Shown in pieces: positions 5,931 through 60,630 of a stretch of 64,000 bases of DNA (positions are counted from its first letter, which is position 1; the number at the start of each line of letters is the position of its first letter). A program made the translations under genes and the position numbers. The stretch lies in the NCBI GenBank assembly GCA_902500205.1, contig GCA_902500205.1_4868.1; one strand, 5' to 3'. This DNA is from Escherichia coli. GTDB lineage: Bacteria; Pseudomonadota; Gammaproteobacteria; Enterobacterales; Enterobacteriaceae. The notes beneath the pieces are model-generated. The model was given only the letters and a program-made list of their open reading frames with translations, had not been told where the DNA came from and did not search any database.

Positions 5931-5951
5931 AGATATATATTACTTAGGTGA
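5931..5951 (+). promoter_or_regulatory. phage promoter-like motif, class 1 (AGATATATATTACTTAGGTGA; contains TATATTAC)
   Basis: One of 8 copies of a conserved oriented motif, about 50 nt upstream of gene 6003. Confidence 0.5.
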
Positions 5952-6002
5952 GCGTTACACGTTAACGCTTTAATCGACTATTACCCAGAAGGAGTATTTA
6001 CA

Positions 6003-9955: not shown

Positions 9956-12001
9956 TTAGCTCTCCCGACGGTAAACTTTGATAGTGGTGTTGAACTGGGT
10001 GAGCAGCACACCGCCTTCAGCGATCAGGTCCAGCGTCACAGAGTAACCATTGGATTTATCGTCTGCAGTGAAGTACGCCTTCGGAGTGACGACAGCAACG
10101 TTATCGAGACGGCCTTCCAGACGTTCGATAATTTTGTTCTCAATCATCTTCGCACGTTCATCATCCGTCATGGCCGCTTCGCCAGACATGTCCGCCCATA
10201 CACGGTCGGAAACACGATAGACGTAGGTCATCATGAAGTTGAACAGGGCGTTGTTCAGTACAGAACGATCTTCGCTGTAGATTGACTGAATCGCCGGAAT
10301 GAACAAGCGATAGTAGTCGTAGGAACGGGCAGTGATCAGCGACACATCCCAGTCAGACGCATACACTTCGTTGCCTTTCCACGGCATACTCAGGTCAGTC
10401 AGATCTTCGATAATCGTCAGTTCGCCACGGCTGAAACGATAAGCCGGTTTTGCACGACCGTCGCCTGCACCCAGGTACTTCGAGAAGAAGTTCGCCAGGG
10501 AGTAGTTCATCGGAACAGGCTTCTTGTAGGAAGAGTTCTTGATGAACGCCGATTGGCCGGTGACCATACCACGTGCAGCCGGAGTGCCGTAATAGGCAGA
10601 TTCCGGTACCGCTGTGATCAATTCGATCAGGGCGATTTTTGCACTTTCTTCTGTCTGCTCATCGTTACGACCTTGGTTGTAAACGTGAGTCGCCAGCGTC
10701 AAGAAGGTGTTACGTGAACGACCGATGAAGTTCACGAGCGCAGCTTTAGTATCGAAGCTAAAGCCAGAGTCCCAGAAACAACCCAGCGAGTATTTCAGCT
10801 CGTTGTCGTAACGGACTTTACCGCCATCCGGGAACAGCAGCATTTCACGGCGAACGAGTTCGTCGTAAACGTCGTTGTTCATGGTACCATCGCTACCACC
10901 TTGCAGGTAGTGGATGTTGGATGCGGAGAACACAACTTTACCGGTTTCAGTAGCCGGGTTTACCTGAAGACCATCGTAAGGCTGGCCCAGTAAATCATAG
11001 CCGCCAAAGATGTCAACCATATACGGGTCAGCAGGCGCATCAGTTGTGATAGCGGCCTGAGCCAAGCCCAGTACAGTTTCCAGGTTCTCGCGATACAGAT
11101 AGAACTGCTCGAAAGGACCATAATCTGGCAGCTCGCCAATGTCAGGCATCGTCTGACGATATGCATCCGCAACAACAACTTCGAAGTCGAGTTGCGTTCT
11201 CATCGGCTGATAGTATGCATCGGGCTTAAAGCTAAAATTGATGCTACTCATGCCAGTGAGAGTTTTCCACACTACCGGAGAAGTCACGCCTGCCAGGGTT
11301 TCGAACCATTGCAGGGTGTAAACACGACCACCGACTTCATTTTGATAGGAGGAGGTCAGAGCCGGGCTGGATTTCTCGCTGAGTGGGATCAGTTTGAAAC
11401 CGAAACCGTTGACGTCAGCACCCGCATACGGGCCTGCGATATCGAACAACGGATACAGCTTCGATTTCGTGCCGCCTTCGCCAGTCATCGTCCCCTCGAT
11501 AACCACACCTGCGCCGATGGCCGGGGTAGTTTCGTCGATTACGACAGAACGGAAGACGATTACCAAACCGTCAACTTGTTCTTTGATCTTGGGCTTGCCC
11601 GAGTTGTCGTACTGAACGATCCCGTTGCTGTCGCGTTCGTAGGACGGAACTTTCGTTTCGAGTACGTCGGCGAATACGCGAACACTTGCGGTTTTCGCAT
11701 CTTCAGGGATCAAGCGCTGATACATACACTCGTTTGCGTTAGCGTTGAACATCGCCTGATAGGGCGTGTTGAACGTCGCGTAGGGGCCTCGCAAGTCAAA
11801 GACATTGCGACCAAGCAGAGACAGTGCATTATCCCCGGTTAACGGGAACGCCTCGTTGTCTACCCCGCGCGCGGCAAAGGTGAAGATCAGCGGCTTATGA
11901 ATTGCGTCACCCGTAGGGGTACGCACAAGCTCGGGGACAGAGTTATCCTGCCAACCTTGCTTGTTATTCAACGGCGCGCCGTTTCGTGGAATAAAAGTCA
12001 T
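9956..12001 (-). CDS. abundant virion structural protein, candidate tail sheath (681 aa)
   Basis: Size typical of contractile-tail sheaths; strongly optimised codons; followed by a tube-sized gene and a strong terminator. Confidence 0.4.
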   Translation of the reverse strand: MTFIPRNGAPLNNKQGWQDNSVPELVRTPTGDAIHKPLIFTFAARGVDNEAFPLTGDNALSLLGRNVFDLRGPYATFNTPYQAMFNANANECMYQRLIPEDAKTASVRVFADVLETKVPSYERDSNGIVQYDNSGKPKIKEQVDGLVIVFRSVVIDETTPAIGAGVVIEGTMTGEGGTKSKLYPLFDIAGPYAGADVNGFGFKLIPLSEKSSPALTSSYQNEVGGRVYTLQWFETLAGVTSPVVWKTLTGMSSINFSFKPDAYYQPMRTQLDFEVVVADAYRQTMPDIGELPDYGPFEQFYLYRENLETVLGLAQAAITTDAPADPYMVDIFGGYDLLGQPYDGLQVNPATETGKVVFSASNIHYLQGGSDGTMNNDVYDELVRREMLLFPDGGKVRYDNELKYSLGCFWDSGFSFDTKAALVNFIGRSRNTFLTLATHVYNQGRNDEQTEESAKIALIELITAVPESAYYGTPAARGMVTGQSAFIKNSSYKKPVPMNYSLANFFSKYLGAGDGRAKPAYRFSRGELTIIEDLTDLSMPWKGNEVYASDWDVSLITARSYDYYRLFIPAIQSIYSEDRSVLNNALFNFMMTYVYRVSDRVWADMSGEAAMTDDERAKMIENKIIERLEGRLDNVAVVTPKAYFTADDKSNGYSVTLDLIAEGGVLLTQFNTTIKVYRRES

Positions 12002-12058
12002 GGAACGTCTCCATATATTCGTCTTAAAGACCTGATGGTCATACTAAGGATCATACTC

Positions 12059-12964
12059 ATGGCACTCGAAAACGCTTACAGCGGTAATCCCTTTAATGCA
12101 CTTGACCTTACTCGCACCAAGGCAGACCTGGAATTAGCCCGTAAACTTAACCAAACTGTCTCGCAGTCCGATGAAGTTCATTACGTTGTTGAGACCGCTG
12201 ATGTAAAACCGTTTCCTTTGCCGATTGTTATCGGCGACGACGTTTATGTATACGCAGCCACGTTTACCACGCTGGATAAGACCAACGAGCTAAAAATACG
12301 AAACCCAGTCGAACACGCATTGCGTCTCGACCAGGCTCGCTGGGAATTGGTGTGGAAACGGAGTAATGGTAAGCTTGCTGCACTGATGGCACAGATGCCC
12401 TACCACCATGAGATTTTCAGCAAATGGGTGTCGGATGCGATTACCCACACGTTTGCACTTGCTCCATATCAAAGTGGGCAAATCAAAGCGTTGGCTGCAT
12501 TGTTCTCTGTGGGACAGTTCTATAATCACGTCGAAGATGATGTGAAAGCTTTACGTTTGCAGCAGATGCTGGAGCAACAATTAGGCTTACCTGCGGAACT
12601 GTTTGAATCAGTGACAGGCCACACAGAATATCTTTTCCCGCGTAATATCGCAGAATTCGTCGAAATGGTGCAGGCTGCAGATATCACTCCGCGGGTGCGT
12701 GACCTGAGCATTCTGTCTCTGCAGCAGATGTTGAATACCAGCTTCTTCGGGGTGAGTTATGAAAAACAACTCGCTACCAGCGCCATCGAATATCCGCCTA
12801 GTCTCTTCGTTATGATTAAGGCTTGTCTGGATAATAACATGTTTAACCGCAGTCGGTTAGGTGGGATTGTGAAGAAGTCAGACACCGCTAAGAAACGCGA
12901 TAAGTTTGAATTCACCTACAACCTTCTGATGAATCAAAACACCAAACCACTGAACATCAAGTAA
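12059..12964 (+). CDS. hypothetical protein (start moved to ATG 12059)
   Basis: AAGGA 8 nt upstream of ATG 12059; track start 11897 would overlap the divergent gene. Confidence 0.5.
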   Translation: MALENAYSGNPFNALDLTRTKADLELARKLNQTVSQSDEVHYVVETADVKPFPLPIVIGDDVYVYAATFTTLDKTNELKIRNPVEHALRLDQARWELVWKRSNGKLAALMAQMPYHHEIFSKWVSDAITHTFALAPYQSGQIKALAALFSVGQFYNHVEDDVKALRLQQMLEQQLGLPAELFESVTGHTEYLFPRNIAEFVEMVQAADITPRVRDLSILSLQQMLNTSFFGVSYEKQLATSAIEYPPSLFVMIKACLDNNMFNRSRLGGIVKKSDTAKKRDKFEFTYNLLMNQNTKPLNIK

Positions 12965-12974
12965 GAGGCCCACT

Positions 12975-15488
12975 ATGGAGAACTGGCTGGTCGCTCACGC
13001 CGTTAAAAATGCGTGGCAGCGTCCGTACCTCGATGGGGTGTTGAACATTGCGCCTTTTCGATTAACTGAAAAGACCGGAGCGATCGGGTTTTTCAAGCAC
13101 GGGCGTAATCCGATTCCTTTACCGGGCGAGGGGTGGTGGCACGCGTTTGTAATTGACAAGCTCCACCTCAACTACGGCAACTTGAGCATCCCTCCTGAGC
13201 GCTGGAAGAAACTTACTACGTGTGTAAATAACTTCCATGCGTGGATGCAGGTGTACAACGAAGATGGGACAATTATCCCGTCGAACTCTGTGTATTTCTG
13301 GCGGACACTCTCTGGTCAGATTTACATGGCGATTCCGCAAACGGAACGCTACAAGTGGTTAGACGACACACCATGTTATCTACGCATTTATGCCGGTAAT
13401 GATGGCGGCGAAAACGCTCCTGTTGTTAAACCGACATTCATCGAACCGTATAATCCGCCGAACCCACAACAGATCCAGATCGTCTTAGACCGTTATAATC
13501 TGTTGAAAGGCCAGAAAATCGGCTATGTCGATTTCTGGGTAAACGGAAAGATGATTGCTAATCCTAAGCCCGCGGATATCAAAGCATGGGATGATGTTGA
13601 AATTCGTGTCGATGGGCGTATTCGTCGTGTGATTGAATACCGTTGTGGGGATTTGCAAACGTTCTACTCAACGCTTGACCAAACACGAAAATACCTGCTG
13701 CACATTCCAAAAGGGGATGGCATTTGGATTTTCAACAACGACTGTGAAATTCAGTTGTTGTGGAAAGGCGAAGGGCGTTACTACCACCGCCACCGTCATC
13801 AGGCCGTGCGTCAATTGACGTGGAACGATATATCGATTCCGTCGATGCGGATTTCGAAATACCGCACCGCTTTCACTAACCCAATGAATGATATCGACGA
13901 ACTAACGATTCGTTTATTGATACGCGACGATTTCCTTGACCTGAAGCCGCTGTATAACTCCACCCACACACATGACCTCTATCGTCTTAGCGACGAGCAG
14001 ATCATCGGTGCGATGGTGGGGGCAAACTCCAACGTACCAGAGTGGACCGCAGCAGCGCTCGAGGAATCGGCAGCGAATCGGTTAGCGGCAGCCAAACTCC
14101 GGAACATCACACGCGATCTCTGCACTGATGCGTACGGCTACAATGCCGCCGCACGTTACAGTGCCGACACTCCACAGCGTCTGGAACTTACATCCGGTGG
14201 CTATCGCGGTACTTTGCCCGACTTACTGGCAACGCTGTCAACTGTATACGAGTACGATGCCGATGGGTTGCTGTTAGAACATCACCGTAATGCAGGCTAC
14301 GATGTTTACATCCCTCGCAATCCAGAAGCACGAATCATCGAGGCTATTGCGGGTGAAGTCTCGGATGCGGTGAAGATTGTTGACAACGCTCCCGACTTTG
14401 AAATTGAGCCGGGTTCAAACGTTGGGTTGTGGATTCGAATGGTCATCGGGGAAGTTCCAACCAACGACTACTACAAAGCCGAGGAAGGAACGGATTATAC
14501 TCGCGACGGAAATAAAATCACCTGGACCGTAGATCGGACACGACGTCACCCGACAGTGATTTACGACGACTTCCATCTGTTCTTCGAAGTGGATGTTAAG
14601 GTGTCGGAAGGTCAGATACGTATTCCGATTGTAGCACGCAACCAAGACGGGCAGCAGCGCACGCTGTGGCTACCGATGGAAACGGTTGAAGTGTGGTTGA
14701 ACAACCACCCACTGGTGCACGGTATCGATTACCACACCCGCTGGCCGGAAATTGTGGTGGTTTGTAAAGCGTGGATGGCGGACGGGGATACAAATAAAGT
14801 CTCAGTGCGTTGTCGTGGCGTGACCGGTGAACTCCGTATTCCTAAACATGGTTTCGTGTCAAACGGACTGCTGTCTAATAACAGCCAGTTTGATTGCCGT
14901 GACGACAAAGTGATTCGTGTCGTGGGCGGCGGTTCACTGCTATTGCGTGACGAAGTCGTGTTCCGTGAAGACAACACTGTAGGTGTTGACATCGTGCAAG
15001 ACGGGTTCCCATACTCGGTCGACGATCCGACTATTCCGTTGCGGACGCTGGTAAGCGGCGATACGTACGACTTGCGCGACACTGCCCGTGATTTGGACAC
15101 ACGCGTCGAGGCTTACCTGTCTAACTGGTTCCCGACACCTCCGCCGGTTAACCCGGTACCGTTGCCGTATCTGTATCACCTCTATTCGCCAACCCTGAAC
15201 AAAATCTTGTGGGACTACTTGCAAGGTATTCTGATTCTGCGGGAAGACGATCCGGAGTATCGTATCTCGACGTCACAGCTGGATGACATCATGGAGCGTT
15301 ATAAAGACCTCCTGCCGTTTGACCCGGCCTATATCGGTTACGATAAAGCGTTTGTGAAACTGCATCCGCATGTGAAGTACGAAACGGTAGAAATCAACGA
15401 ACTTGGCTTTGCTTTCTTAGACCGCGTCAATGAACGTTATCTGAATGGCGAAGTGCAGCTTAATCAGTATCTGATAATCAAGGGTTAA
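12975..15488 (+). CDS. large hypothetical protein (837 aa), possible virion protein
   Basis: Long ORF with GAGG upstream, in the same array as the terminase gene. Confidence 0.6.
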   Translation: MENWLVAHAVKNAWQRPYLDGVLNIAPFRLTEKTGAIGFFKHGRNPIPLPGEGWWHAFVIDKLHLNYGNLSIPPERWKKLTTCVNNFHAWMQVYNEDGTIIPSNSVYFWRTLSGQIYMAIPQTERYKWLDDTPCYLRIYAGNDGGENAPVVKPTFIEPYNPPNPQQIQIVLDRYNLLKGQKIGYVDFWVNGKMIANPKPADIKAWDDVEIRVDGRIRRVIEYRCGDLQTFYSTLDQTRKYLLHIPKGDGIWIFNNDCEIQLLWKGEGRYYHRHRHQAVRQLTWNDISIPSMRISKYRTAFTNPMNDIDELTIRLLIRDDFLDLKPLYNSTHTHDLYRLSDEQIIGAMVGANSNVPEWTAAALEESAANRLAAAKLRNITRDLCTDAYGYNAAARYSADTPQRLELTSGGYRGTLPDLLATLSTVYEYDADGLLLEHHRNAGYDVYIPRNPEARIIEAIAGEVSDAVKIVDNAPDFEIEPGSNVGLWIRMVIGEVPTNDYYKAEEGTDYTRDGNKITWTVDRTRRHPTVIYDDFHLFFEVDVKVSEGQIRIPIVARNQDGQQRTLWLPMETVEVWLNNHPLVHGIDYHTRWPEIVVVCKAWMADGDTNKVSVRCRGVTGELRIPKHGFVSNGLLSNNSQFDCRDDKVIRVVGGGSLLLRDEVVFREDNTVGVDIVQDGFPYSVDDPTIPLRTLVSGDTYDLRDTARDLDTRVEAYLSNWFPTPPPVNPVPLPYLYHLYSPTLNKILWDYLQGILILREDDPEYRISTSQLDDIMERYKDLLPFDPAYIGYDKAFVKLHPHVKYETVEINELGFAFLDRVNERYLNGEVQLNQYLIIKG

Positions 15489-20972: not shown

Positions 20973-21044
20973 GGCGCTAAACCTCTAAAAATTTACGGAT
21001 ATATGTTATCATACTGAGAGTATACCTGAAGGAGATTTTACCCA

Positions 21045-25623: not shown

Positions 25624-25699
25624 AGGAAAGTGACGCAATTGGTAGCGTACCGGTCTCCAAAACCGGCTGTTTAGAGTTCGAGTCTCTACTTTCCTGCCA
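25624..25699 (+). tRNA. tRNA-Trp (anticodon CCA), 3' CCA encoded
   Basis: Manual cloverleaf: acceptor AGGAAAG/CTTTCCT, D-stem ACGC/GCGT with GG in loop, anticodon stem CCGGT/ACCGG with loop CTCCAAA, T-arm TAGAG-TTCGAGT-CTCTA. Confidence 0.85.
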
Positions 25700-29579: not shown

Positions 29580-29613
29580 GAGGGAACTTCGGTTCCCTCT
29601 TTTTTTCTTTTTT
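29580..29613 (+). terminator. intrinsic terminator
   Basis: Hairpin GAGGGAAC-TTCG-GTTCCCTC plus T-run. Confidence 0.75.
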
Positions 29614-29637
29614 CACGACTGCCTCAGAATCTTATAG
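29610..29637 (+). promoter_or_regulatory. promoter-like motif, class 2 (TTTTCACG..CTTATAG)
   Basis: Near-identical arrangement recurs at 35611..35637, both just after a terminator and 15-25 nt before a start codon. Confidence 0.35.
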
Positions 29638-29649
29638 GAGGAAGTTACC

Positions 29650-30066
29650 ATGATTACGCAGTGCTATTACCAGACGCAAGATTTATTTAAAGCATTGGAA
29701 GAAAATAAGTTACCCACGACTTTAAGACCGCAGTGCAGTTATTCAAGAATGCTTGCAAGTGAGGTCTTTCCGGTGCTAATGCAGTTGCCTCAATTCCAAC
29801 CGTGGCTCGACTCGCTAGATGTGGTAGATGTTGTGGCTATCTACACTGGGTCAGACACACCAACAATAAATACAAGCGAGTGTTTATCCCGTAGCGAATC
29901 GTCGGTGTTAAATGAAATGCCGCAGCTAATGCCTTCTTTATTCGATTCGATGTGCGCTGCAGTTATGCAGAAACGACTACCTTATGAGGAAGTATTCGCC
30001 ATTGTGTTAGACAGCATCCACGCAATGAATTATAAACACTATAAAACCCTCGGAACTTTACACTGA
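29650..30066 (+). CDS. hypothetical protein (138 aa)
   Basis: AGGAGG upstream of ATG. Confidence 0.55.
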   Translation: MITQCYYQTQDLFKALEENKLPTTLRPQCSYSRMLASEVFPVLMQLPQFQPWLDSLDVVDVVAIYTGSDTPTINTSECLSRSESSVLNEMPQLMPSLFDSMCAAVMQKRLPYEEVFAIVLDSIHAMNYKHYKTLGTLH

Positions 30067-34561: not shown

Positions 34562-35161
34562 ATGATCTACAAGGTGATCGCCAACCACTTGATTAATGTG
34601 GACTTGGGGGTCGTGGGGTATCTTCCGGACGGTATGCGGTTTTTGGATTTGGTGGTTGACACCGTAGTCCGCCTACCGCGTATCACCGTGGAGATACCCG
34701 TAAAAGAATTGGACCAGGACGAGATACACGAACTTATACGTGAAACGCTGACTAGCTATACGTACGAGTTTCGTTGCATGTTGCCTCGCACCGACCTTAC
34801 GTTCTTGCACGACTTCTTTACGTTACTGACTGACGAGTACCGTCGGTGGAAGTTTAATGTTGCAATGGAAGCCAGCACTGAGTCACATTTTAACGGGCTG
34901 ACACCATTGTTAGATTTAGCGTTGGTGTACAAAGAGCAAGACAGTTCACACTGGGCCACGCTCAAGCACTACACGTTGGATCTAATGGCGACCGCCGTAA
35001 CGGAGGCAGTTATGGCGCATTATGTTGAGCCGGTGAAGATGTTCTTAGAGGCGCATAATGGCGCTATCCGTACGTTGGTTCTCAAGGTGGACTTCCCGAA
35101 AACACCAGTGACCAATGCTTTGGATATGAGGCTGCTTATTGATGTTCCTGAGGAGGAATAA
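34562..35161 (+). CDS. hypothetical protein (199 aa)
   Basis: AAGGAG upstream of ATG. Confidence 0.55.
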   Translation: MIYKVIANHLINVDLGVVGYLPDGMRFLDLVVDTVVRLPRITVEIPVKELDQDEIHELIRETLTSYTYEFRCMLPRTDLTFLHDFFTLLTDEYRRWKFNVAMEASTESHFNGLTPLLDLALVYKEQDSSHWATLKHYTLDLMATAVTEAVMAHYVEPVKMFLEAHNGAIRTLVLKVDFPKTPVTNALDMRLLIDVPEEE

Positions 35162-35571
35162 TGTTCGATTTACGCACACTGGTCGCTGGGCAAAAAGTTA
35201 ACATTGTTTACGACACCCCTTTGAAAGGGCAAGAGACGCGTGTAATTATTCTGGCAACCGGCGTTGGCTATGAAATGGCCAAAAGCTATATGGATGTGAT
35301 GGCGGAGCAGAAGAATATCTACTCATCCATCGTCTCTCAGCCAGAAGATAACGTGAACAAATACACGTATCTGATTTTCAAAGGTGTTGACGGCAAACCA
35401 AAAGTCGCTGCCGATGCCTGGATTCGTGATGTTCAGATTATCGAAAACACGAAGGTGCGCTTCACCGTCACCCTGGATAACAAACAGGAGATTGACGACC
35501 TTAAACGCGCCCTGGCTGCCAATGGTTTCAATGATGTCGATTTTGAAATCGTTGAGAGCATTGCCGGTTAA
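35161..35571 (+). CDS. hypothetical protein (136 aa), last gene of the array
   Basis: AGGAGG upstream; terminator downstream. Confidence 0.55.
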   Translation: MFDLRTLVAGQKVNIVYDTPLKGQETRVIILATGVGYEMAKSYMDVMAEQKNIYSSIVSQPEDNVNKYTYLIFKGVDGKPKVAADAWIRDVQIIENTKVRFTVTLDNKQEIDDLKRALAANGFNDVDFEIVESIAG

Positions 35572-35577
35572 AGTAAT

Positions 35578-35615
35578 CCCACTCTTCGGAGTGGGTTATT
35601 TTTTTTTCTTTTTTC
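35578..35615 (+). terminator. intrinsic terminator
   Basis: Hairpin CCCACTC-TTCG-GAGTGGG plus long T-run. Confidence 0.75.
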
Positions 35616-35637
35616 ACGTATCCCGCAAGTCTTATAG
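35611..35637 (+). promoter_or_regulatory. promoter-like motif, class 2 (TTTTCACG..CTTATAG)
   Basis: Second copy of the motif seen at 29610..29637. Confidence 0.35.
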
Positions 35638-35662
35638 CTGAGTAAAAACCAAGGGGCCAGAC

Positions 35663-37942
35663 GTGGACTACAATTCACCATTTCGTCTTAGTCAAGACGA
35701 GTATCATCGCGACATTGACGTTATCGATGCGTACTACGAACAACTGGCGCTCTACATTCATACCGTCACCAACGGGAAATATTCTTTGGAGTTCTGTCGA
35801 CAGCAGGTCGAAGAAATGTTCCAACCTGGTGGTGAGTTAGTACACGAATTCCCCGTGTGTAAGATGTGGGTGCGCAATCAAAAGACCGGCGATCGCGAAG
35901 AAAAATACACCACGGTAGATAAACTGTTCCGTACAGTGATTGATAAGCAGATCATTTCTGCACCGTCGTTGACTTTCTATTTGCCGGAACACGTAAAGCG
36001 TTCTAAGCTTGCCGAATTTACCGCAGAGAACGTGCGTAAGCGTGCGGTGGTTAAGAAAGAGATGTATGCGGCCGGTGCTGCAGGCAACGAAGTTTTACGT
36101 ATTAACAAAAAGAACGAACAGAACGCTGTTAAAACGCTGAACAACGGGATGTCTGGTGCATTCTCATCACCGTACACGGTAATCTTTAACCAGTCTTCGC
36201 ACTCTGTATTGACGTCAACCTGCCGTACGGCTACATCGTTCGGTAACGCGGGCAACGAACGTCTACTGGGCGGTAATCGTCACTACGACACGCCGTCCCG
36301 TGTTATCGACCACTTACTGTCTATTGGTACACTGACTAACTTTGCGGAGTTCAAGAAGTGTATGGAACTCTATAACCTCCACTACCCAACAGTGGACGAG
36401 GTTATGGAAGTGGTTATGTACTCTGCAGAGTTTTACTTCCGTAACGACGAAGGGCTGGAGTTCATTCGTCACTACGTCGGTAATTGTAGCCCGCTGGTAC
36501 GTGCAGCGTTTGTCTACATGGGTGACTTCTACCACCTGGCGAAATACAACGATGAATTCATGCGCGGATTTATCGGTGCGCTGATTGCCGAGGAGATGGA
36601 AGACGAGATCACCGATTGGGATGCTGCTGAGCGCTCTATCGACGGTGACATGCAGATCATTATCTCGCAGTTCCGTACTGATATCGTGCCGTTAGGTAAG
36701 TCGTTCTCTGACGTTAAACTCAAAGACGAAAACACGAACAAAGCGGAACCGTGGGATAAGCAGGAAAAATACAAAGAGCTGATTCGCTCAGCTGTGTATC
36801 TGCAGAAAACCATCGGTAAGTACGCGTGCTTGATTCGTAATATCCTGACCACCAAAAACCTGCCAATCAACATTGCCAGGATGCCTGATGTGGTTCGTCG
36901 TGTTGGCGTGGTGTCTGATACCGACTCCACGATGATGACTGCACAGTGGTGGGCGCAGTGGTATACCGGTCAACATTACGGTCGTGAAGCTACGCGCGTA
37001 TCGGATGCGATGATTTATATCGCAACCCAGCACTTACGTCATCTGATGGCGAGTATGTCGGCGAATATCGGTGTGGCGAAAGAGCGTCTGTTTTTGTACG
37101 CAATGAAGAACGAATTTAAGTTCGACTCCTTTGCGTTAACCACGAAAGCAAAACACTATTTCTCCATCATCACTGGCCAGGAAGGGCAGTTGAAGTCTGA
37201 CCCTGAGTTAGAAGTTAAGGGCGTGTCTTTACGTACGTCGAACATTCCTCCGGTGGTCATGAAAGAGTTCAAACGCACGATCAAAGAACTCTGTGAGATC
37301 GTGGCACGTGGTGACAAGATTAAGATTCTGCCTCTGCTGGAAAAGGTTGCTGCAATTGAGCACGTTGTGGTGGACTCTATTCGTGCTGGTAAAGCAGGCT
37401 ACCTGAAAACAACCAACGTCAAAGACCGTAGTGCGTACTCTGAAGATGATGAAAAGAGTTACCACTACCACCGCATGTACAACGCTATCTTTGGACCGAA
37501 GTACGGCTACCTGGACGAACCGCCTTATGACGCCGTGAAGCTTCCGGTAAACCTGGAGAACAAAACAGCCGTTAAAGAGTGGCTGGAAAACATTAAAGAC
37601 CCGATGATTAAGACCACCGCAACACGGTGGTTCGAAGAAAACAACTATCGTACCTATCGTACTCTGATACTGCCAGAGTTCCTGGTGGAAAACTTCGGTA
37701 TTCCGCCGGAGCTGATTGATGCTGCAGACACACGTCGAAGCGCATTCTCCACAGTAGAACCTTACTATCACATTCTGGAATGTCTGGGTGTGTTCATGAT
37801 GGACAAGAATAGAACTCGTCTGCTTTCGGATTACTACGGTGAGTCTGTAGATTCCGTCAAGGAAGAATTAGGTAGTGGTGAGTACGTTAAGAAATCTGAA
37901 CGTGATGGAGAGGAAGAAGATGGGGAAGAAGCGGAGGAGTAA
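35663..37942 (+). CDS. large protein with family-B DNA polymerase-like motifs (putative polymerase catalytic subunit); GTG start
   Basis: KTLNNGMSGAF resembles PolB motif B (K...NS.YG) and VGVVSDTDS resembles motif C (YGDTDS); no exonuclease motifs seen and motif spacing is atypical. Confidence 0.35.
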   Translation: MDYNSPFRLSQDEYHRDIDVIDAYYEQLALYIHTVTNGKYSLEFCRQQVEEMFQPGGELVHEFPVCKMWVRNQKTGDREEKYTTVDKLFRTVIDKQIISAPSLTFYLPEHVKRSKLAEFTAENVRKRAVVKKEMYAAGAAGNEVLRINKKNEQNAVKTLNNGMSGAFSSPYTVIFNQSSHSVLTSTCRTATSFGNAGNERLLGGNRHYDTPSRVIDHLLSIGTLTNFAEFKKCMELYNLHYPTVDEVMEVVMYSAEFYFRNDEGLEFIRHYVGNCSPLVRAAFVYMGDFYHLAKYNDEFMRGFIGALIAEEMEDEITDWDAAERSIDGDMQIIISQFRTDIVPLGKSFSDVKLKDENTNKAEPWDKQEKYKELIRSAVYLQKTIGKYACLIRNILTTKNLPINIARMPDVVRRVGVVSDTDSTMMTAQWWAQWYTGQHYGREATRVSDAMIYIATQHLRHLMASMSANIGVAKERLFLYAMKNEFKFDSFALTTKAKHYFSIITGQEGQLKSDPELEVKGVSLRTSNIPPVVMKEFKRTIKELCEIVARGDKIKILPLLEKVAAIEHVVVDSIRAGKAGYLKTTNVKDRSAYSEDDEKSYHYHRMYNAIFGPKYGYLDEPPYDAVKLPVNLENKTAVKEWLENIKDPMIKTTATRWFEENNYRTYRTLILPEFLVENFGIPPELIDAADTRRSAFSTVEPYYHILECLGVFMMDKNRTRLLSDYYGESVDSVKEELGSGEYVKKSERDGEEEDGEEAEE

Positions 37943-41825: not shown

Positions 41826-43777
41826 GTGAGAAAGGTACCAAAATTCTACGGAATATCCGGCCGGTTGGTTAGTCAGGATAACTATTTGTCCGATTTGCAA
41901 ATAGAAGCTGCTGCCAAAGGTATTAAACCACCCACTATTATTAACGATGTCGCCGTTAACGGGGATGCGATCGAGGTTGCTGAACTTATCGATCGCATGG
42001 TACAGAACAGAATCGTTGACGAAGAACTGAACTCTGCACCGATTTGTAGTTTGGATTGTCCGGCACCGATCGCGCATCGTTACAATCTCGGTTGTAAGTG
42101 TCCGACGTGTGGCTATGTTGTAACTGAACATCGAATTGAATCCGATGTCTGGTTACGTGCACCCGATGAAATGGGTAACTTCGTCAACCCACGATTCTGG
42201 GCAATGTTCAATGCTTTCTTTAATAGCAAGTTGAAGAAGTTTGAACGTAACAAGGTCACTATCGAACGCGGTAATGACTTGATGATGTGGATGATTGACC
42301 CGTATTACCGTATAGAAGAACCAGACGGTAAACGCGCACATGCTGTGAAACGTGTATTGGAAGAACATGGTTTCGTTCGTGGCTTGCGCAATCTGGTTGA
42401 TAACCACGTTAGTATCTTTAACATCCTTACCACGCCAGAAGCCTGGAAGGAAATCTTCGCACCTAATCGGCATAACGCCGCTGAAGGTGAACGCTTACGT
42501 TTACAATGGAAGGAGCTATTCGAAACGCAACGCCATGCATTCTTCCCAAGACACTTACCGCTAATCTCCTCTAAGCTTATCGTTACTGAGGAAGGTCGTC
42601 GTGGTGTCATGGTAGACCCAGTGTTCACGGGTGCTATCGATGCGGTGAAAAATATCGCGTTACTTTATACGCGGCGTAAAGCGATCGAACCACGTTTTCT
42701 GATTAGTCGCGCTTTGAAAGCCAACCGTCAGTTAACGTACTTCCACATGGACTTCCGTCGTGAGTCTATGGAAGGTAAACCGGGTGACTATCGTGCGAAA
42801 TTGGGTTCTACCCATATCCCATTCGGTGGTCGTGCAACCATCTCACCTATCTCAGAACCACACGATGCCTGGAAGTTAAAAGCACCATGGCGTTGGATGG
42901 TTGGGTTGATGTCGACCCACATCGAGAACAAACTGCTACGACGGGGTTATTCGTCACGGCAATGTGAACGTATCGTTGCAAAAGCGGCAATGCAGTATGA
43001 CCCGCTTGTAGATGAAATCTTTAAAGAACTGATTCGTGAATCCCCAGGCGGTCTTGGGATCATGGTCATACCGCTACGTAACCCAACGCTGGTACAGTTG
43101 TCTATTCAAACGCTGTACATCGATGAAGTTGTTACCGATGTTAACCAGTGTTCGCTGCGTATCTCTGACCGTGTGATCAAGATGGCTAACGGTTCGAAAA
43201 GAGCCCCATCGGACGGGAAACCTCTGATGCGTATTCTCCTGAAATGCTGGGAAACCCTAAAGCGTATCTACCAGAAATGGGGACGAAAGTCTGAAACAAC
43301 AGATACGATGGCCTACGCTAAACAATACTGCTAACGGTTGTGATAATGGGTAATCAGCAGCGAAGCCTCGTGAGAGGAACGTTCAACGACTATCGCTGAA
43401 ATGCGAGTAGGGGTCCCAGTGGACTTCGAAGTGGGAGAACACCTAAGGCGATAGCTATGGTGAAGATATAGTCTGTGCCTTATCGAGAGATAAGGAGGGT
43501 GTCTTAGCACACCTGCTGTATACGGAAACGGTATACGGTGGACAAACAGGATTTCGATGGCGACCAGTTCCAGGTACGTTTGCCAGTCGATGAAACTGAG
43601 ATGAAGTTGGCGCTCCAATTCCGTCCAGATAACGGCTTTATGTCTTCTACTGATGTGGACCGCGTAGAACACGGCATGGTTTTACATAACGAGCTAATCA
43701 GTATGCAGAACCAGTTCCTTATTGAAGCAGATGAGGATGATGAAGAAGGCATTCCGTTGGAAGCGGTGATGGGCTAA
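41826..43777 (+). CDS. RNA polymerase beta-prime subunit, N-terminal fragment, interrupted by a group I intron (exon 1 from 41826 to about 43166, exon 2 from about 43532 to 43777)
   Basis: Zn-finger-like CSLDC..CKCPTC; NPTLVQLSIQ matches beta-prime APTLHRLGIQ; exon 2 carries DFDGDQFQVRLP (catalytic NADFDGDQ); GTG start with GAGG upstream. Confidence 0.7.
43167..43531 (+). ncRNA. group I self-splicing intron (boundaries approximate)
   Basis: Canonical core elements: Q-like AATCAGCAGC (43351), R GTTCAACGACTA (43381..43392), S AAGATATAGTC (43463..43473, identical to the Tetrahymena S element), P9 hairpin CCTTATC..GATAAGG; 5' exon can end in T and intron in G with frame restored. Confidence 0.7.
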
Positions 43778-48292: not shown

Positions 48293-48313
48293 AGATAGAT
48301 ATTATCTCAGTGC
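48293..48313 (+). promoter_or_regulatory. phage promoter-like motif, class 1 (TAGATAGATATTATCTCAGTG)
   Basis: Conserved motif copy about 30 nt upstream of ATG 48342. Confidence 0.5.
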
Positions 48314-48341
48314 AATCGACTATTCGCGGAGTTCAACTATA

Positions 48342-53450: not shown

Positions 53451-53474
53451 CAGATAGATATTATCTTACCGAGG
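53451..53474 (+). promoter_or_regulatory. phage promoter-like motif, class 1 (CAGATAGATATTATCTTACCGAGG)
   Basis: Conserved motif copy about 25 nt upstream of the RNAP beta gene start. Confidence 0.5.
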
Positions 53475-55734: not shown

Positions 55735-57839
55735 TGGCGGGTCGTTCTGTACACGTACGTGATTTGCGTATGCTTAACTCTGATCAGGTGTGGAAACTAC
55801 GCGGGCGTTATTACGTGACGTTTGACGATGGTAAGTCGTTGGAAATGTCTAGTCGCCACATCAAACTCAGCTGGCCGTATTGGGGTGTGTCGCGTCTGTA
55901 TCCGCAGGTGCCCACTCCATCGACCATGGCGTATCGTCCAGGTCAGGTAGCAACAGATGACCTGCATCTGGACTTTATGTCGGAAGCAGCGGTACTGGCC
56001 CGTAAAGCAGGTGTCGACCTTGCTGAAACGCGTTATATCTTGAGTCAACATGTCTACGCCGATGCGTTCAACATGACAGTGAAGAACTTGCTGTCCTATT
56101 GTACGACAATCGACTTTGATACGATGATGGAGATCTACGACCACCCGAACTTCGAACTCATCCGTCAGTGGGAAGTGCAATACCCTACTGGCTACGATGA
56201 AGATGGTCGGGATATGGTTGAAGAAGCGTACAAGCTTATCGAGAAAATCTTCAAAGACCCTGCGCTACGGTATAACCCGGTCGTGATGTCGGTACTGGAC
56301 GGTACTGTGAAGATGAACCAGGTACTGCAAGCCTTCGTGCGTGGTAAAACGTCAGAAATTGACTCACGTGTATACACCAATCAGGTGTGGGAAGGCTTCT
56401 TTACCGGAATGCACTCGGTTATTTCGCGTTTGAAAGAATCCGGTGCAACTTCACGTTCCCACTTGTACAACACTGACAAGATTGCCGAAGCAGAATACGC
56501 CTCACGTAAACTGCAGTTGGCAGCAAACGTACTGATGTATTTCACGTACGACGACTGCGGTACAACTCACGCACACCGCTACACGTTTAAGGATACGCAG
56601 CTGGATGAGCGTGCCTATAAAGCGATGGTGGGGATGCGTTATCGTTTAGAAGGCGATAATGGTCCGTGGTTGAGATTTGAGAAAGGTGGATACGCAGACC
56701 TGGTTGGCAAACCGCTGGTCTTCCGTAGTGCCATGACCTGTAAAGAGATGGCGAATCAGTCCATCTGTGCGACCTGTATGGGGGATTTGATTTATAACCT
56801 CTCTGAAGGTACGTCACCAGGTCACCTGGCGTCCACGTCCATCTCGGAAAAGGGTACACAGGGAATTCTCTCTACCAAGCACCTTGACTTCTTGCGTTAT
56901 CTGCTCAACCTGGTACTCACCCCACGTATGCGTGAGTATATGACCGAATACAAACATAACTCTCTGAAAGGGTTGTGCTTGCTACCAAAACCACAGCGTG
57001 GTAATTGGTCAGAATACGAGTTGGTTGTTACCGACAAAGTTTATTCGGAGCTGAGCCAGATTGCGTACCATGAAGATCTCGATGCAATTGATGAAACGGC
57101 ATTACCAGAAATCACCGACTTAACTTTCCAACGTCGTTTAGAAGATGGGCAGATAATCGCTGCGGATTCTATCGATGTGCGAATGGGTGTTTGTGGGAAC
57201 TTCTCTAAACCGTTCCTGCACTACTTCTTGAAACAACGAGCGAACATTCGTATCGAGAAGAAGACGGTAGAAATCCCCTTAAAAGGATGGAACCCGAAAC
57301 ACCCGGTCCTGGTCTACACCAACCGTTCTGAATCGATGGCAGAATTCGTAGCCGGCTTAGAAACCAAGCTCCGTTCGATTGCAGCTGATAAGAACGAAGA
57401 CATTGTGGAAATCATCAACACAGCCTCGACTGTGAAGCTGAACAAGAAACAAGGTCGTGTGAAACCGGTGACGTTGGTTGAAATGGGTGGTGCTACAGAG
57501 AAACAGTGTACTTATGCGTTGATGGACACGTTTAAGTATATCCAGCGTAAGCTGAGTGGTATACCGATGACGCACATTGCGATTATGTTGGCGATATCTC
57601 GCGTAGAGTCACCAACCAATCCGTTCCCGGCGGTAGGATTTGACAGTGAAGATTCTACTAATGCTACAGGGAAACGGTTTGTCGATCACAACACGCTCAT
57701 TAGTTTGCGCTCGGCAATTCCGATGTTGTTGTTTGAAGGACAGCAGGGGAACATCGATCGCGTTGGTTTTTATACCGAGTACAAAATCCCGGCATCGTTG
57801 TACGATGACCTAGGAGCCGCTGTGGTAATTGAGTTGTAA
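55734..57839 (+). CDS. RNA polymerase beta-prime subunit, C-terminal portion (split-gene form)
   Basis: ICATCMGDLIYNLSEGTSPGHLASTSISEKGTQGILSTKHL matches beta-prime CAHCYGRDL...SIGEPGTQLTMRTFH; ATGG overlap with the beta gene. Confidence 0.7.
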   Translation: MAGRSVHVRDLRMLNSDQVWKLRGRYYVTFDDGKSLEMSSRHIKLSWPYWGVSRLYPQVPTPSTMAYRPGQVATDDLHLDFMSEAAVLARKAGVDLAETRYILSQHVYADAFNMTVKNLLSYCTTIDFDTMMEIYDHPNFELIRQWEVQYPTGYDEDGRDMVEEAYKLIEKIFKDPALRYNPVVMSVLDGTVKMNQVLQAFVRGKTSEIDSRVYTNQVWEGFFTGMHSVISRLKESGATSRSHLYNTDKIAEAEYASRKLQLAANVLMYFTYDDCGTTHAHRYTFKDTQLDERAYKAMVGMRYRLEGDNGPWLRFEKGGYADLVGKPLVFRSAMTCKEMANQSICATCMGDLIYNLSEGTSPGHLASTSISEKGTQGILSTKHLDFLRYLLNLVLTPRMREYMTEYKHNSLKGLCLLPKPQRGNWSEYELVVTDKVYSELSQIAYHEDLDAIDETALPEITDLTFQRRLEDGQIIAADSIDVRMGVCGNFSKPFLHYFLKQRANIRIEKKTVEIPLKGWNPKHPVLVYTNRSESMAEFVAGLETKLRSIAADKNEDIVEIINTASTVKLNKKQGRVKPVTLVEMGGATEKQCTYALMDTFKYIQRKLSGIPMTHIAIMLAISRVESPTNPFPAVGFDSEDSTNATGKRFVDHNTLISLRSAIPMLLFEGQQGNIDRVGFYTEYKIPASLYDDLGAAVVIEL

Positions 57840-57842
57840 ACC

Positions 57843-57869
57843 GAGGGGCCTTGCGCCCCTCTTTTTTTG
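57843..57869 (+). terminator. intrinsic terminator
   Basis: Hairpin GAGGGGC-CTTGC-GCCCCTC plus T-run. Confidence 0.7.
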
Positions 57870-57885
57870 TGCGAAGAGGGGTAGC

Positions 57886-60630
57886 ATGGTAGAAATTCAA
57901 ATGACTTACACGAGTATGGGGGTACGGGTTGAAGTCCCTATCCGCCAGGCTGAAAGGGCCATACTCGCGTGGGCCGAAGAGAATATGCACGCCCCAAAGA
58001 TGGGCAAGCAACATGGACGAATAACTACGGAACGCGGTGACGCGTACTACGCCCACATTCCGTCTTTAAGGACGTTCATTTTCCATAAAGTGTTCGCTGA
58101 GAAGATTAAACATATCCTCCAACGAGCAGCAATTGAATATGCTTTTCAGTACAAGCTGACAGAGCACCATCCTGAGCGAGGAACACCTTACTGCTGTACA
58201 TTTGATAACTACGGCTTCTCGATGGTAGAAAGCGATCCGGAGTCGCGTTTCTACTATCAGAACGAGGTTGTGGATGCAGCGTCCGATCCAAACCGACCAC
58301 AGACAATCTTTGCCATTCAGACAGGAAGAGGAAAATGCTGTGCTCATGGTACACGTGTGCGTGTACCGGGTGGTTGGAAGAACATTGAGGATATACAGCT
58401 AGGTGATTACGTTACGGGGCGTGACGGAAAACCAGCAATGGTCTCTGGAGTGTTCCCACAGGGTGTGGTTGACCTGTATCAGGTGACGTTTTGGGATGGT
58501 AGGAGTGTTGATGTATGCGGTGAGCATTTGTGGCAAAGCTACTACGTTAATACCACCGAGAACCGTCGCTGGGGTGTACGCGATACTCTAGAGATGAAAC
58601 GTTTAATCTCGATGCCTAATCCGCGTGTGTATATTCCGTTGCCTGAACCGGAGGAGACTCCAGAAAAGGATTTCCCGGTTAGTCCATATCTGTTGGGTGT
58701 GTTATTGGGCGACGGTAGTTTAACCGGTGGCTCCGTTGTTTATCACAAACACGATGTGGAAATAATGGAGAAGGTATTATCGGAACTGCCAGAAGGTTAT
58801 ACAATCCACGTTTCCAAGTATCGTGATGGTCTTACAAAGACTATCAATAGCCCAGGTCACGACCATTGTATTCGTGACGGACTGAAAGAACTGGGAATCT
58901 GGGGTTGTGCTGCTTGGGAGAAATATATACCGGCGGAGTATTTTGAAGGGTCTATTGAACAGCGTTGGGAACTCTTACGTGGTTTGATGGATACCGACGG
59001 GACGGTAAATAAGGATGGGGGGCAACCCTCATTCTGTTCTACCAGCAAGGCGCTGGCGTTGGGCGTCCAGGAATTAGTTCGTTCTCTGGGCGGAATAGCC
59101 ACTATCTCCGAGAAAAAGCCGAAGTATACTTATCTCGGTGAAAAGAAAGATGGCCGTTTAGCTTACATTGTATTTATTCGCCACAAAACACCATCGAAAC
59201 TGTTCCATCTTCCAAGGAAGAAAGAACTGTGTCGTGATAACGGTCAATACAACGATATACTGAAACTTCGTGTTAAGTCTATCGAACCTATTGGGCGTGA
59301 CCTTGGCACGTGTATTCGTGTCGAGAACGCCGATGCGTTGTTTGTGGTGGACAAATGGATTGTTACGCACAACACCAAGACTTGCATGAAAACAATGGTG
59401 AAACGTGGTACCAGAACTGCGTTAATCCATAGACCTTCATACGTCCCTAAATGGTTGTTTGATGTGTGCGACGACGAGACCGGTTTACGCATTACGCGTG
59501 ACGACGTCTTAGTCTGTACCGGCGTACAAGCCATCTACGACGCTCTGGAGATGGGTAAGTCGGGAGAGCTGGATAGACGGGGCATTAAGGTAATAATCCT
59601 CCCCACAGTCTCTCTACAGCGTTTCCTGAAGGAATACATTAACACCGCTGCGACTAACCCTGTGGATCTGGATACGTTTTATGATGTTCTGGGCGTGGGT
59701 CTGGTAGCGATGGATGAGGTGCACGAGCATTTTCACCTCGTTTACATGGCAGGTATAATGTTGAACCCGCCAGCATCGATAGAAATGTCTGCAACTCTTA
59801 AACCGGGTAGCAGCAAAGCGTTTATCGCGGAGCGGTATTTAGAACGGTTCCCAATGGAGTACCGAATCAGTATTCCAATCATTCCGGTGGTTGATGTGAA
59901 AGCGTTGTACTATCGACTGGATGATAAGAAGTTTGCGTGGTGGGCATCGAAGATGACGCCGTATAACCACAAACTCTTCGAAGGGAAGCTGATTAAAGAG
60001 AACTTGCATTTAGAATACGCGAACATGATCTGGGATGTGGTTGAGAAATCGTTCCTTAAACGGTATCAACCCGGCCAGAAGTGTTTGCTGCTATTTGCCA
60101 CGGTTGCAATGTGTGAGTTCTTTACCGAGTATGTGAAAGATAAGTTGTCGCGTGACCCTGTATTCCATCCACTCATGGTGGCGAAATATAATGCAGGCGA
60201 TTCGTATGACGACTTTATCCAAGCAGACTTCTCTATCTCCACACCGGGGAAAGCGGGGACTGCGGTCGATAAACCTGGGTTGGTACACATGTACATTTCA
60301 ACCCCGGTAGAAGACCAGCAACTGAACGAACAGATGGCCGGTCGTCCACGTAAGATTCTCCACAACGAATGGGGTGAAATAGACCCAACGGTGTGGTTAT
60401 TCCATGCGTATAACGTACCGAAGCATTGCAATTACCTGAATGCCCGCCAGAAATCACTCAAGGATGTCGTATTGTCGTTCCGTATCGCGACATCCCCCTA
60501 CGTTGTAAGGAAATCACATGCTCACTCCGCCGCGTCCAGCAGAGCCACTGCCACCCTACATCGGAATGACTTTAGCAAGTTTTCTCGAAAACGTTCTAAA
60601 GGCGTATCCCGGCGTAGAAGACGTCGCTAA
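57886..60630 (+). CDS. DExH-box helicase/ATPase precursor containing an intein in the P-loop
   Basis: Extein junction gives Walker A GRGK|T; Walker B/DExH AMDEVHEH downstream; ATG 57886 lies after the terminator (the track's earlier start does not). Confidence 0.65.
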   Translation: MVEIQMTYTSMGVRVEVPIRQAERAILAWAEENMHAPKMGKQHGRITTERGDAYYAHIPSLRTFIFHKVFAEKIKHILQRAAIEYAFQYKLTEHHPERGTPYCCTFDNYGFSMVESDPESRFYYQNEVVDAASDPNRPQTIFAIQTGRGKCCAHGTRVRVPGGWKNIEDIQLGDYVTGRDGKPAMVSGVFPQGVVDLYQVTFWDGRSVDVCGEHLWQSYYVNTTENRRWGVRDTLEMKRLISMPNPRVYIPLPEPEETPEKDFPVSPYLLGVLLGDGSLTGGSVVYHKHDVEIMEKVLSELPEGYTIHVSKYRDGLTKTINSPGHDHCIRDGLKELGIWGCAAWEKYIPAEYFEGSIEQRWELLRGLMDTDGTVNKDGGQPSFCSTSKALALGVQELVRSLGGIATISEKKPKYTYLGEKKDGRLAYIVFIRHKTPSKLFHLPRKKELCRDNGQYNDILKLRVKSIEPIGRDLGTCIRVENADALFVVDKWIVTHNTKTCMKTMVKRGTRTALIHRPSYVPKWLFDVCDDETGLRITRDDVLVCTGVQAIYDALEMGKSGELDRRGIKVIILPTVSLQRFLKEYINTAATNPVDLDTFYDVLGVGLVAMDEVHEHFHLVYMAGIMLNPPASIEMSATLKPGSSKAFIAERYLERFPMEYRISIPIIPVVDVKALYYRLDDKKFAWWASKMTPYNHKLFEGKLIKENLHLEYANMIWDVVEKSFLKRYQPGQKCLLLFATVAMCEFFTEYVKDKLSRDPVFHPLMVAKYNAGDSYDDFIQADFSISTPGKAGTAVDKPGLVHMYISTPVEDQQLNEQMAGRPRKILHNEWGEIDPTVWLFHAYNVPKHCNYLNARQKSLKDVVLSFRIATSPYVVRKSHAHSAASSRATATLHRNDFSKFSRKRSKGVSRRRRRR
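58336..59373 (+). mobile_element. intein (346 aa) with LAGLIDADG homing-endonuclease domain
   Basis: Starts with Cys directly after GRGK, ends VTHN followed by Thr; Hint blocks (GDYV..DG, GEHLW); LAGLIDADG motifs LLGVLLGDGSL and LLRGLMDTDGTV. Confidence 0.75.

Follow-up and report, generated by a model that had tools for sequence, protein, structure and literature searches.

A 759-Residue Divergent Family B DNA Polymerase Chain of a phiKZ-Like Jumbo Phage: Probable Half of a Split Enzyme

Introduction

The DNA polymerases of the phiKZ/EL/OBP type, described as 'PolBrPhiKZ' (PMC3201878) and as the group 1 jumbo-phage polymerase (PMC7824862), are gathered in the Pfam family PF20286 and share the family B sequence motifs, a long helical insert, a separate exonuclease gene, an upstream gene for an SH3-fold protein, and a C-terminal TRL(I/L)SD(F/Y)Y sequence. 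The location of the exonuclease on a separate open reading frame (ORF) was described early on (PMC3201878), and the SH3-fold gene upstream of the polymerase was recognized as a conserved neighbourhood (Iyer 2021, PMC7824862). For Salmonella phage SPN3US, the proteins gp18 and gp44 have been referred to as a 'split subunit DNA polymerase', a phrase credited to Cornelissen et al. 2012 (PMC5694885, PMC5105663). The present study concerns a gene at positions 35663..37942 (+) of a stretch of 64,000 nucleotides deposited under Escherichia coli (GenBank assembly GCA_902500205.1, contig GCA_902500205.1_4868.1), which is called the window in the following. Its product of 759 amino acids (aa) is the ortholog of SPN3US gp18 and represents the polymerase-half subunit of a split phiKZ-type family B DNA polymerase (PolB); in all probability it is one of two polypeptides of the replicative enzyme of a phage from the SPN3US group of phiKZ-like jumbo phages, with a composite active site to which both chains would contribute.

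Other split PolBs are found in some T4-related Aeromonas phages (gp43A/gp43B), in Methanothermobacter thermautotrophicus (a two-gene PolB), and in Nanoarchaeum (a split-intein PolB). They are close relatives of the canonical PolBs, with halves that are adjacent or intein-linked, and a core encoded by two genes must assemble. In contrast, the halves discussed here are highly divergent, lie ≈ 30 kb apart on opposite strands, and appear to be split family-wide. The best structural match for both of them is gp43 of T4 and RB69, the canonical RNA-primed family B replicase, which in T4 is a single chain of 898 aa. Within PF20286, the 759-residue protein is 27-37% identical to the members from Pseudomonas phages; an acidic tail of ≈ 35 aa is an addition of the SPN3US-group proteins, and the position of EL D229 is occupied by Asn. 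From SPN3US gp18 it differs by a few substitutions only, and the GTG start, the upstream SH3-fold gene, and the intergenic element are the same in both.

Family, Fold and Motifs of the 759-Residue Chain

PF20286, 'Divergent Family B DNA polymerase' (divDNApol), is matched by the protein over its full length (E=4.1e-284, 944.6 bits against a cut-off of 25.7), aa 11-725 aligning with positions 3-705 of the 705-position profile. The Pfam scan, carried out at E<=1, returned besides this family only PF00136, weakly and for aa 94-189 only (17.9 bits vs a cut-off of 23, such that the gathering score was not reached); no family A and no AEP or PrimPol domain was detected by it. All PHROG matches are to PolB-type 'DNA polymerase', among them phrog_2927 'DNA polymerase', and the DNA polymerase profiles phrog_262 and phrog_1918 cover aa 416-544. 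An AlphaFold2 model built on the homolog alignment, with a mean predicted local distance difference test (pLDDT) score of 82.3, displays the fingers-palm-thumb fold of PolB; the top 50 Foldseek matches of this model are all RB69 or T4 gp43, with ≈ 12% sequence identity in the structural alignment. A literature search found no biochemical or structural work on the enzyme. In a first-pass annotation of the window, made from the letters alone, the ORF had been read as a possible divergent or split polymerase from two motif-like segments, a comparison with families A and B and with primase-polymerases had been proposed, and the lack of a polymerase-fold match had been named as the outcome that would speak against it. 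The divergent family B character is borne out by the profile and fold matches, and the evidence speaks for the reading as a PolB that is both divergent and split.

The two segments in question, K..NNGMSGAF and VVSDTDS, both fall on invariant columns in an alignment of 40 homologs (identity 35% or more), from which conservation was taken throughout. Motif B, of the KxxxNSxYG type, reads KTLNNGMSG (K157-TL-N160-N161-GM-S164-G165, aa 157-165, 36131-36157; the longer segment KTLNNGMSGAF spans aa 157-167, nt 36131-36163), and K157, N160, N161, S164 and G165 are invariant in 40/40 homologs. Motif C, VVSDTDST (aa 416-423, 36908..36931; VVSDTDS at 36908-36928), provides the two metal-binding aspartates D419 and D421 as the Mg-chelating DxD, here DTD, of the palm hairpin, and the whole run S418-D419-T420-D421-S422-T423 is invariant in all 40 sequences. 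Equally invariant (40/40) is the KxY motif of the palm, K497-H498-Y499 (aa 497-499, 37151..37159), which aligned with K703-R-Y705 of T4 gp43 in a weak hhalign match (E=0.019). The conservation of motifs B and C is not a matter of chance. Motif B (KxxxNSxYG), motif C (DTDS) and KxY of canonical single-chain PolBs (PF03104 + PF00136) are hence all present, whereas the Exo motifs and motif A (DxxSLYPS), which those enzymes carry in the same polypeptide, are not: as the first-pass annotation had noted for the exonuclease, neither the Exo I-III motifs nor an exonuclease domain was found in the ORF by Pfam scan and motif search, and the motif search of the ORF found no D-x4-Y-P motif either.

The order of the domains can be followed along the chain. 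The N-terminal segment before the fingers (aa 1-114, 35663..36004), delimited by AlphaFold2 secondary structure and conservation, includes a β-hairpin at 65-84, in which G76-D77-R78 is nearly invariant, as well as the beginning of a stretch upstream of motif B that can be aligned with Pol zeta; the palm is probably made up of this segment in conjunction with the C-terminus of the partner chain. The fingers (aa 115-166, 36005..36160), recognized from the model, the weak PF00136 match and an alignment with Pol zeta, consist of two long helices (115-139 and 143-166). This alignment spans positions 85-165 of the family profile, from just upstream of motif B to the end of motif B, and the stretch upstream of motif B corresponds to conserved region VI of the family B polymerases. 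The thumb-like C-terminal domain of the model (aa 530-725, 37250..37837) ends in NRTRLLSDYY; in the consensus of this end, NRTRLVSDYY, S722 is invariant, and L720 and D723 are nearly so. A corresponding 'TRLISDFY' motif was noted earlier as a possible variant of a clamp-binding sequence (Kazlauskas & Venclovas 2011, PMC3201878). The strongly acidic, disordered tail that follows (aa 726-759, …ERDGEEEDGEEAEE, 37838..37939) is limited to the closest relatives, with pLDDT <50 from aa 731 and an alignment occupancy of 0.22 over aa 741-759.

The special feature of this chain is a family-specific, all-helical insert of ≈ 230 aa between motifs B and C (aa 179-410, 36197..36892), mostly helical according to AlphaFold2. 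It accounts for the wide spacing of the two motifs, which the first-pass annotation had correctly seen as exceeding that of canonical PolB: 262 residues separate K157 from D419, as compared to 61 between K557 and D618 of T4 gp43, which amounts to ≈ 200 extra residues, while the distance from motif C to KxY (78 aa vs 85 in T4) is similar. The insert opens, after a low-confidence loop (aa 165-180), with SVLTSTCRTATSFGNAGNER (aa 181-200, nt 36203-36262), which has the highest conservation of any 20-aa block in the protein (mean column identity 0.87), above that of motifs B or C, and has no known counterpart in other PolBs. These phages have no known sliding clamp (PMC3201878), and the long helical insert was suggested as a possible means of making up for its absence (Iyer 2021, PMC7824862).

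The Partner Chain and the Position of the Split

A separate gene for the exonuclease, which the first-pass annotation had recommended to look for elsewhere in the genome, was located in SPN3US beyond the end of the window. This second gene annotated 'DNA polymerase' encodes gp44 (YP_009153338.1; 41224-43008 (-), 594 aa); it is situated on the opposite strand, ≈ 30 kb from the gp18 gene and, by collinearity, ≈ 2.7 kb past the window end. Pfam gave no domain in this protein, and the assignment came from PHROGs, hhalign and Foldseek. The partner matches phrog_3011 'DNA polymerase', and on the full-length polymerase profile phrog_262 it covers positions 91-369, with the 759-residue protein covering 576-701, such that between them they represent complementary portions of a single PolB. 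Among 38 homologs of the partner, D152 and E154 (Exo I), D266 (Exo II), and Y395 and D399 (Exo III) are invariant (38/38), and N262 of Exo II is kept in 37/38. The best Foldseek matches of the partner model are RB69 gp43 (E=1e-12). The separate exonuclease gene typical of PF20286 is thus present in SPN3US, and the 98.6% identity of the polymerase gene to that of SPN3US suggests the same for the phage studied here.

The position of the split follows from the C-terminal region of the partner, which carries DADLTQAYPS (D506-A-D508-L-T-Q-A-Y513-P514-S) with D506, D508, Y513 and P514 invariant in 38/38 homologs. In hhalign, the partner profile aligned with T4 gp43 with a probability of 96.3% (E=1.5e-9), residues 231-529 of the partner falling, as a single collinear block, on 183-429 of T4; the block takes in Exo II and Exo III and closes with DADLTQAYPS on FD408LTSLYPS of T4, and the order of motifs in the alignment with RB69 is the same. 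Since motif A resides on the partner and the profile of the 759-residue protein aligns with Pol zeta from upstream of motif B, the break is placed between motifs A and B, inside the palm. Read in series, partner and 759-residue chain present Exo I, II, III, motif A, B, C and KxY in the order of T4 gp43, and it is the T4-type chain that is broken here between motifs A and B, with ≈ 94 extra residues around the break (motif A to motif B: 243 aa summed over the two chains vs 149 in T4). In the AlphaFold2 models pLDDT falls below 50 at residues 467-594 of the partner and at residues 419-423 of the 759-residue protein, the DTD hairpin, such that both monomer models lose confidence exactly where the two halves should meet. 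Hence the first-pass suggestion of a split polymerase holds for SPN3US, with Exo I-III and motif A on the second protein.

Several aspartates of the 759-residue protein were considered for the role of the motif A aspartate and set aside. D17 (24/40) and D19 (27/40) lack conservation, D77 is kept as Asp in 37/40 but sits in a hairpin turn and has no Y-P downstream, D288 is invariant but lies inside the helical insert, and position 226, equivalent to EL D229, is Asn in this protein.

Both chains have almost the same distribution. With tblastn, 301 phage records were retrieved for the 759-residue protein and 296 for the partner, with an identical genus breakdown (Pseudomonas 81/81, Erwinia 62/62, Vibrio 23/23, Serratia 21/21, Aeromonas 20/20). 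A profile search of 1.84 billion representatives yielded 1464 relatives; the best 150 of these are ≈ 700-780 aa long and match from the N-terminus on, and none of the 150 is fused to a 3'-5' exonuclease domain. The split appears to be fixed in the family.

Two relatives with additional domains deserve mention as side observations. The lone long outlier among the best 150, a metagenomic protein of 967 aa (P0260), carries an N-terminal 5'-3' exonuclease / T4 RNase H-like (FEN) domain (PF02739, PF09293); the fusion of FEN and divDNApol is a Pol I-like combination and could be an artefact of gene calling. Another relative (P0350) has a C-terminal DUF4326.

Assembly of the Active Site and Alternative Explanations

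In the arrangement favoured here, the 759-residue chain would supply the fingers with motif B, the ≈ 230-aa helical insert, the palm hairpin with motif C (D419/D421), KxY and the thumb, and the 594-residue partner would supply the N-terminal domain, the 3'-5' proofreading exonuclease (Exo I-III) and the C-terminal motif A. Their association would most likely pack the motif A strand of the partner against the motif C hairpin of the 759-residue chain, so that one two-metal active site would be built from two chains, and either chain alone should not polymerise.

A number of points weigh against this picture. With the PDB, the family profile gave only a weak match to the fingers of Pol zeta (E=0.01), and hhalign of the same profile with the single sequence of T4 gp43 aligned the KxY region only (probability 2.5%, E=0.019); because sequence-only comparison with solved enzymes is weak, the polymerase assignment is built on Pfam, PHROGs and the fold. 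The motif A stretch taken alone was not significant in hmmsearch, and the AlphaFold2 model of the motif A region of the partner is of low confidence; the proposed assignment of motif A draws on its collinear position, its invariance and the match in hhalign. The partner gene is located beyond the window, and its presence in this exact genome is suggested by the near-identity to SPN3US and its relatives; binding of the two chains to each other is a prediction. Finally, in the domain map of 2011 both catalytic aspartates (EL D229 and D398) were placed in the polymerase chain, with the site modelled on RB69 (Kazlauskas & Venclovas, PMC3201878).

An extended version of the proposal holds that motif A is supplied in trans by the exonuclease chain and that, in addition, the helical module serves clamp-independent processivity or primer initiation in a manner unlike any other PolB, with the SH3-fold protein perhaps as a third subunit; taken as a whole, this is rather improbable.

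Improbable, too, is the arrangement implied by the 2011 map, namely, that the 759-residue protein is a self-sufficient catalytic subunit holding both aspartates and that the partner is a loosely associated, stand-alone proofreading exonuclease. This would agree with the assignment of EL D229 and D398 to one ORF in the RB69-modelled site (PMC3201878) and with the description of the exonuclease as a standalone protein encoded elsewhere (Iyer 2021, PMC7824862). In an EL-type ortholog, residues 229 and 398 are indeed both Asp; D398 aligns with D421 of the 759-residue protein, and D229 with N226. The column of N226, however, holds D in 28/40 and N in 12/40 homologs, and in the AlphaFold2 model it sits where two predicted helices meet and not at a β-strand end; for both reasons the EL D229 position is ruled out as an essential metal ligand. 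On the other hand, an invariant DxD..x.YP aligned to motif A of T4/RB69 is found on the partner, and an invariant D-x4-Y-P is absent from the 759-residue protein, both of which argue against self-sufficiency. The location of motif A on the exonuclease chain is to be regarded as a refinement of the 2011 map, not as a new system, and it may already be in print, since the 'split subunit' phrase is in use and credited to Cornelissen et al. 2012.

A role as primase-polymerase, besides or instead of elongation, with the helical insert permitting de novo priming, is very unlikely. The idea of priming was raised in view of the fact that group 1 jumbo phages are without DnaG-type and AEP primases yet carry RNase H (Iyer 2021, PMC7824862), and the insert opens with the most conserved block of the protein, which speaks for an important role. 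Against it, the Pfam scan detected no AEP, PrimPol or family A domain, and both fold and motifs correspond to PolB enzymes that extend primers; furthermore, priming by the multisubunit RNA polymerases of the phage itself is an equally open alternative (Iyer 2021, PMC7824862). That the resemblance of the motifs is coincidental and the protein not a polymerase, as might be argued from a phmmer search against PDB sequences that gave nothing relevant, is practically excluded and already refuted by the fold and profile results, i.e., the PF20286 match at E=4.1e-284, the invariant catalytic motifs, the fold match to RB69 gp43, the complementary coverage of phrog_262 by the two chains, and the standing as a core gene in ≈ 300 jumbo phages.

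Gene, Start Codon and Genome of Origin

The ORF at 35663..37942 (+) encodes 759 aa from a GTG start, in agreement with the first-pass annotation, and this GTG is the most upstream start possible. A Shine-Dalgarno-like AAGGGG, read from the sequence at 35651..35656 (+), is located 6 nt 5' of the GTG, with an aligned AGGRG in the orthologs, and the aligned GTG is the start codon of the orthologs in five other phages too. Because F7, Y14 and R16 are invariant in the homologs, translation begins at or before residue 7.

Over its whole length the gene is 98.6% identical in DNA to SPN3US 11544-13823, annotated 'DNA polymerase' (YP_009153312.1); close matches to it occur in 60 SPN3US-like and Erwinia jumbo phages, and along aa 1-745 the protein shares 100% identity with that of Escherichia phage vB_EcoM_Lh1B. 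SPN3US (240 kb, Seoulvirus), with which the window is collinear, has neighbouring genes annotated as RNA polymerase beta subunits, in keeping with the genomic setting of the family in phiKZ-like jumbo phages that encode a multisubunit RNA polymerase. In view of the near-identity to SPN3US and vB_EcoM_Lh1B and the matches in 60 phages, the window is, judged by its sequence, part of a ≈ 240-kb phiKZ-like jumbo phage of the genus Seoulvirus. One further gene of SPN3US (73754-75532) is annotated only as 'polymerase' (phrog_2943, 'polymerase'); its product could be a subunit of an RNA polymerase and not a DNA polymerase.

Upstream Gene and Promoter-Like Element

The gene preceding the polymerase gene (35161..35571 (+)) encodes a protein of 136 aa that belongs to the SH3-fold proteins associated with phage DNA polymerases (SH3DP; PF20287, E=3.2e-35; phrog_3235), in keeping with the conserved upstream SH3DP gene of the PF20286 family; a role of this protein as an accessory subunit of the polymerase is possible. 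The two genes are separated by a terminator-like hairpin, CCCACTC-TTCG-GAGTGGG (35578-35595), which is followed by a T-run (35578..35608 (+) in total) and is kept at the orthologous loci by compensatory changes.

Directly after the T-run there is a bipartite promoter-like element (35609..35637 (+)), composed of TTTTTTCACG (35609-35618), a spacer of 11 nt, and TCTTATAG (35630-35637), which ends 25 nt before the GTG. The first-pass annotation had listed a class 2 promoter-like element before the gene; such an element is there and is conserved in five other phages, four of other genera and one more distant Seoulvirus, in which TTTTTCAC and TTATAG are invariant upstream of the orthologs and the spacer varies. 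Its action as a promoter is a prediction. The composite pattern was observed twice in the window, with 0 occurrences expected, and the strict element occurs only 2 times in the 240-kb SPN3US genome. The second copy of hairpin, T-run and TTTTTTCACG-N12-TCTTATAG in the window is found at 29588-29637 (+), before an ATG at 29650; the gene that follows encodes 138 aa (phrog_9322), and its TATAG is only 11 nt from the ATG.

A related sequence precedes the partner gene. At SPN3US 43009-43059, on the minus strand, TACG-N15-TATAGCAGA ends exactly 25 nt before the ATG, so that the offset of 25 nt from element end to start codon is common to the gp18-type and gp44 elements, and TATAGCWGA has 2 sites only in the 240-kb SPN3US genome, upstream of the two subunit genes. 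ACG-N13/15-TATAG upstream of the partner gene is kept in 4/5 aligned phages, namely SPN3US and three phages of Erwinia that belong to two other genera. The aligned region of the fifth, the Erwinia phage Phobos, is different. It may be suggested that the two subunit genes are co-regulated via this shared upstream element. This is put forward as a suggestion only, because the shared motif was defined after both sequences had been seen and because the element is not a general promoter class. The latter possibility was considered and rejected: the strict form occurs only twice in the SPN3US genome, the loose form ACG-N-TATAG occurs 44 times, close to a rough hand estimate of chance, and TATAG is placed ≈ 25 nt before a long ORF only three times. 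In a scan for σ70-type promoters, sites were no more numerous than expected by chance.

Other Features of the Window

Elsewhere the genome differs from that of SPN3US. The ortholog of the SPN3US 'DNA helicase' (568 aa) comprises 933 aa here (57829-60630 (+), probable true start ATG 57886), with an intein of ≈ 345 aa at aa 171-515 that combines Hint and LAGLIDADG homing endonuclease domains (PF14528, PF05203, PF05204). The site of the intein is an apparent Walker A motif (AIQTGxGK | S/T). SPN3US is without this insert and shares 89-92% identity with the flanks. An AT-rich intergenic motif, GATA(T/G)ATATTA(C/T), occurs upstream of four genes (≈ 5935-5955, ≈ 21000-21015, ≈ 48300-48320 and ≈ 53455-53470 (+)) and resembles the early-promoter consensus of phiKZ, TATATTAC. 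A single tRNA-Trp (CCA) gene at 25624-25699 (+) corresponds to the annotated tRNA-Trp of SPN3US; its region (22.7-27.5 kb) has many long intergenic gaps and spans the start/end of the linear SPN3US record.

Conclusions

The enzyme system described here is already known, with a Pfam family of its own and a name in the literature (PMC5694885, PMC3201878, PMC7824862). What is added is limited to the placement of motif A on the partner and the hyperconserved segment aa 181-200, which sits in an enzyme without a known sliding clamp or primase. A split inside the catalytic palm predicts that neither chain is active alone, the key residues being D508 of the partner and D419/D421 of the 759-residue chain, and, if true, motif A in trans would revise the 2011 domain map. 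The phiKZ-like, nucleus-forming jumbo phages that have this enzyme as their replicase are of interest for both phage therapy and phage cell biology.

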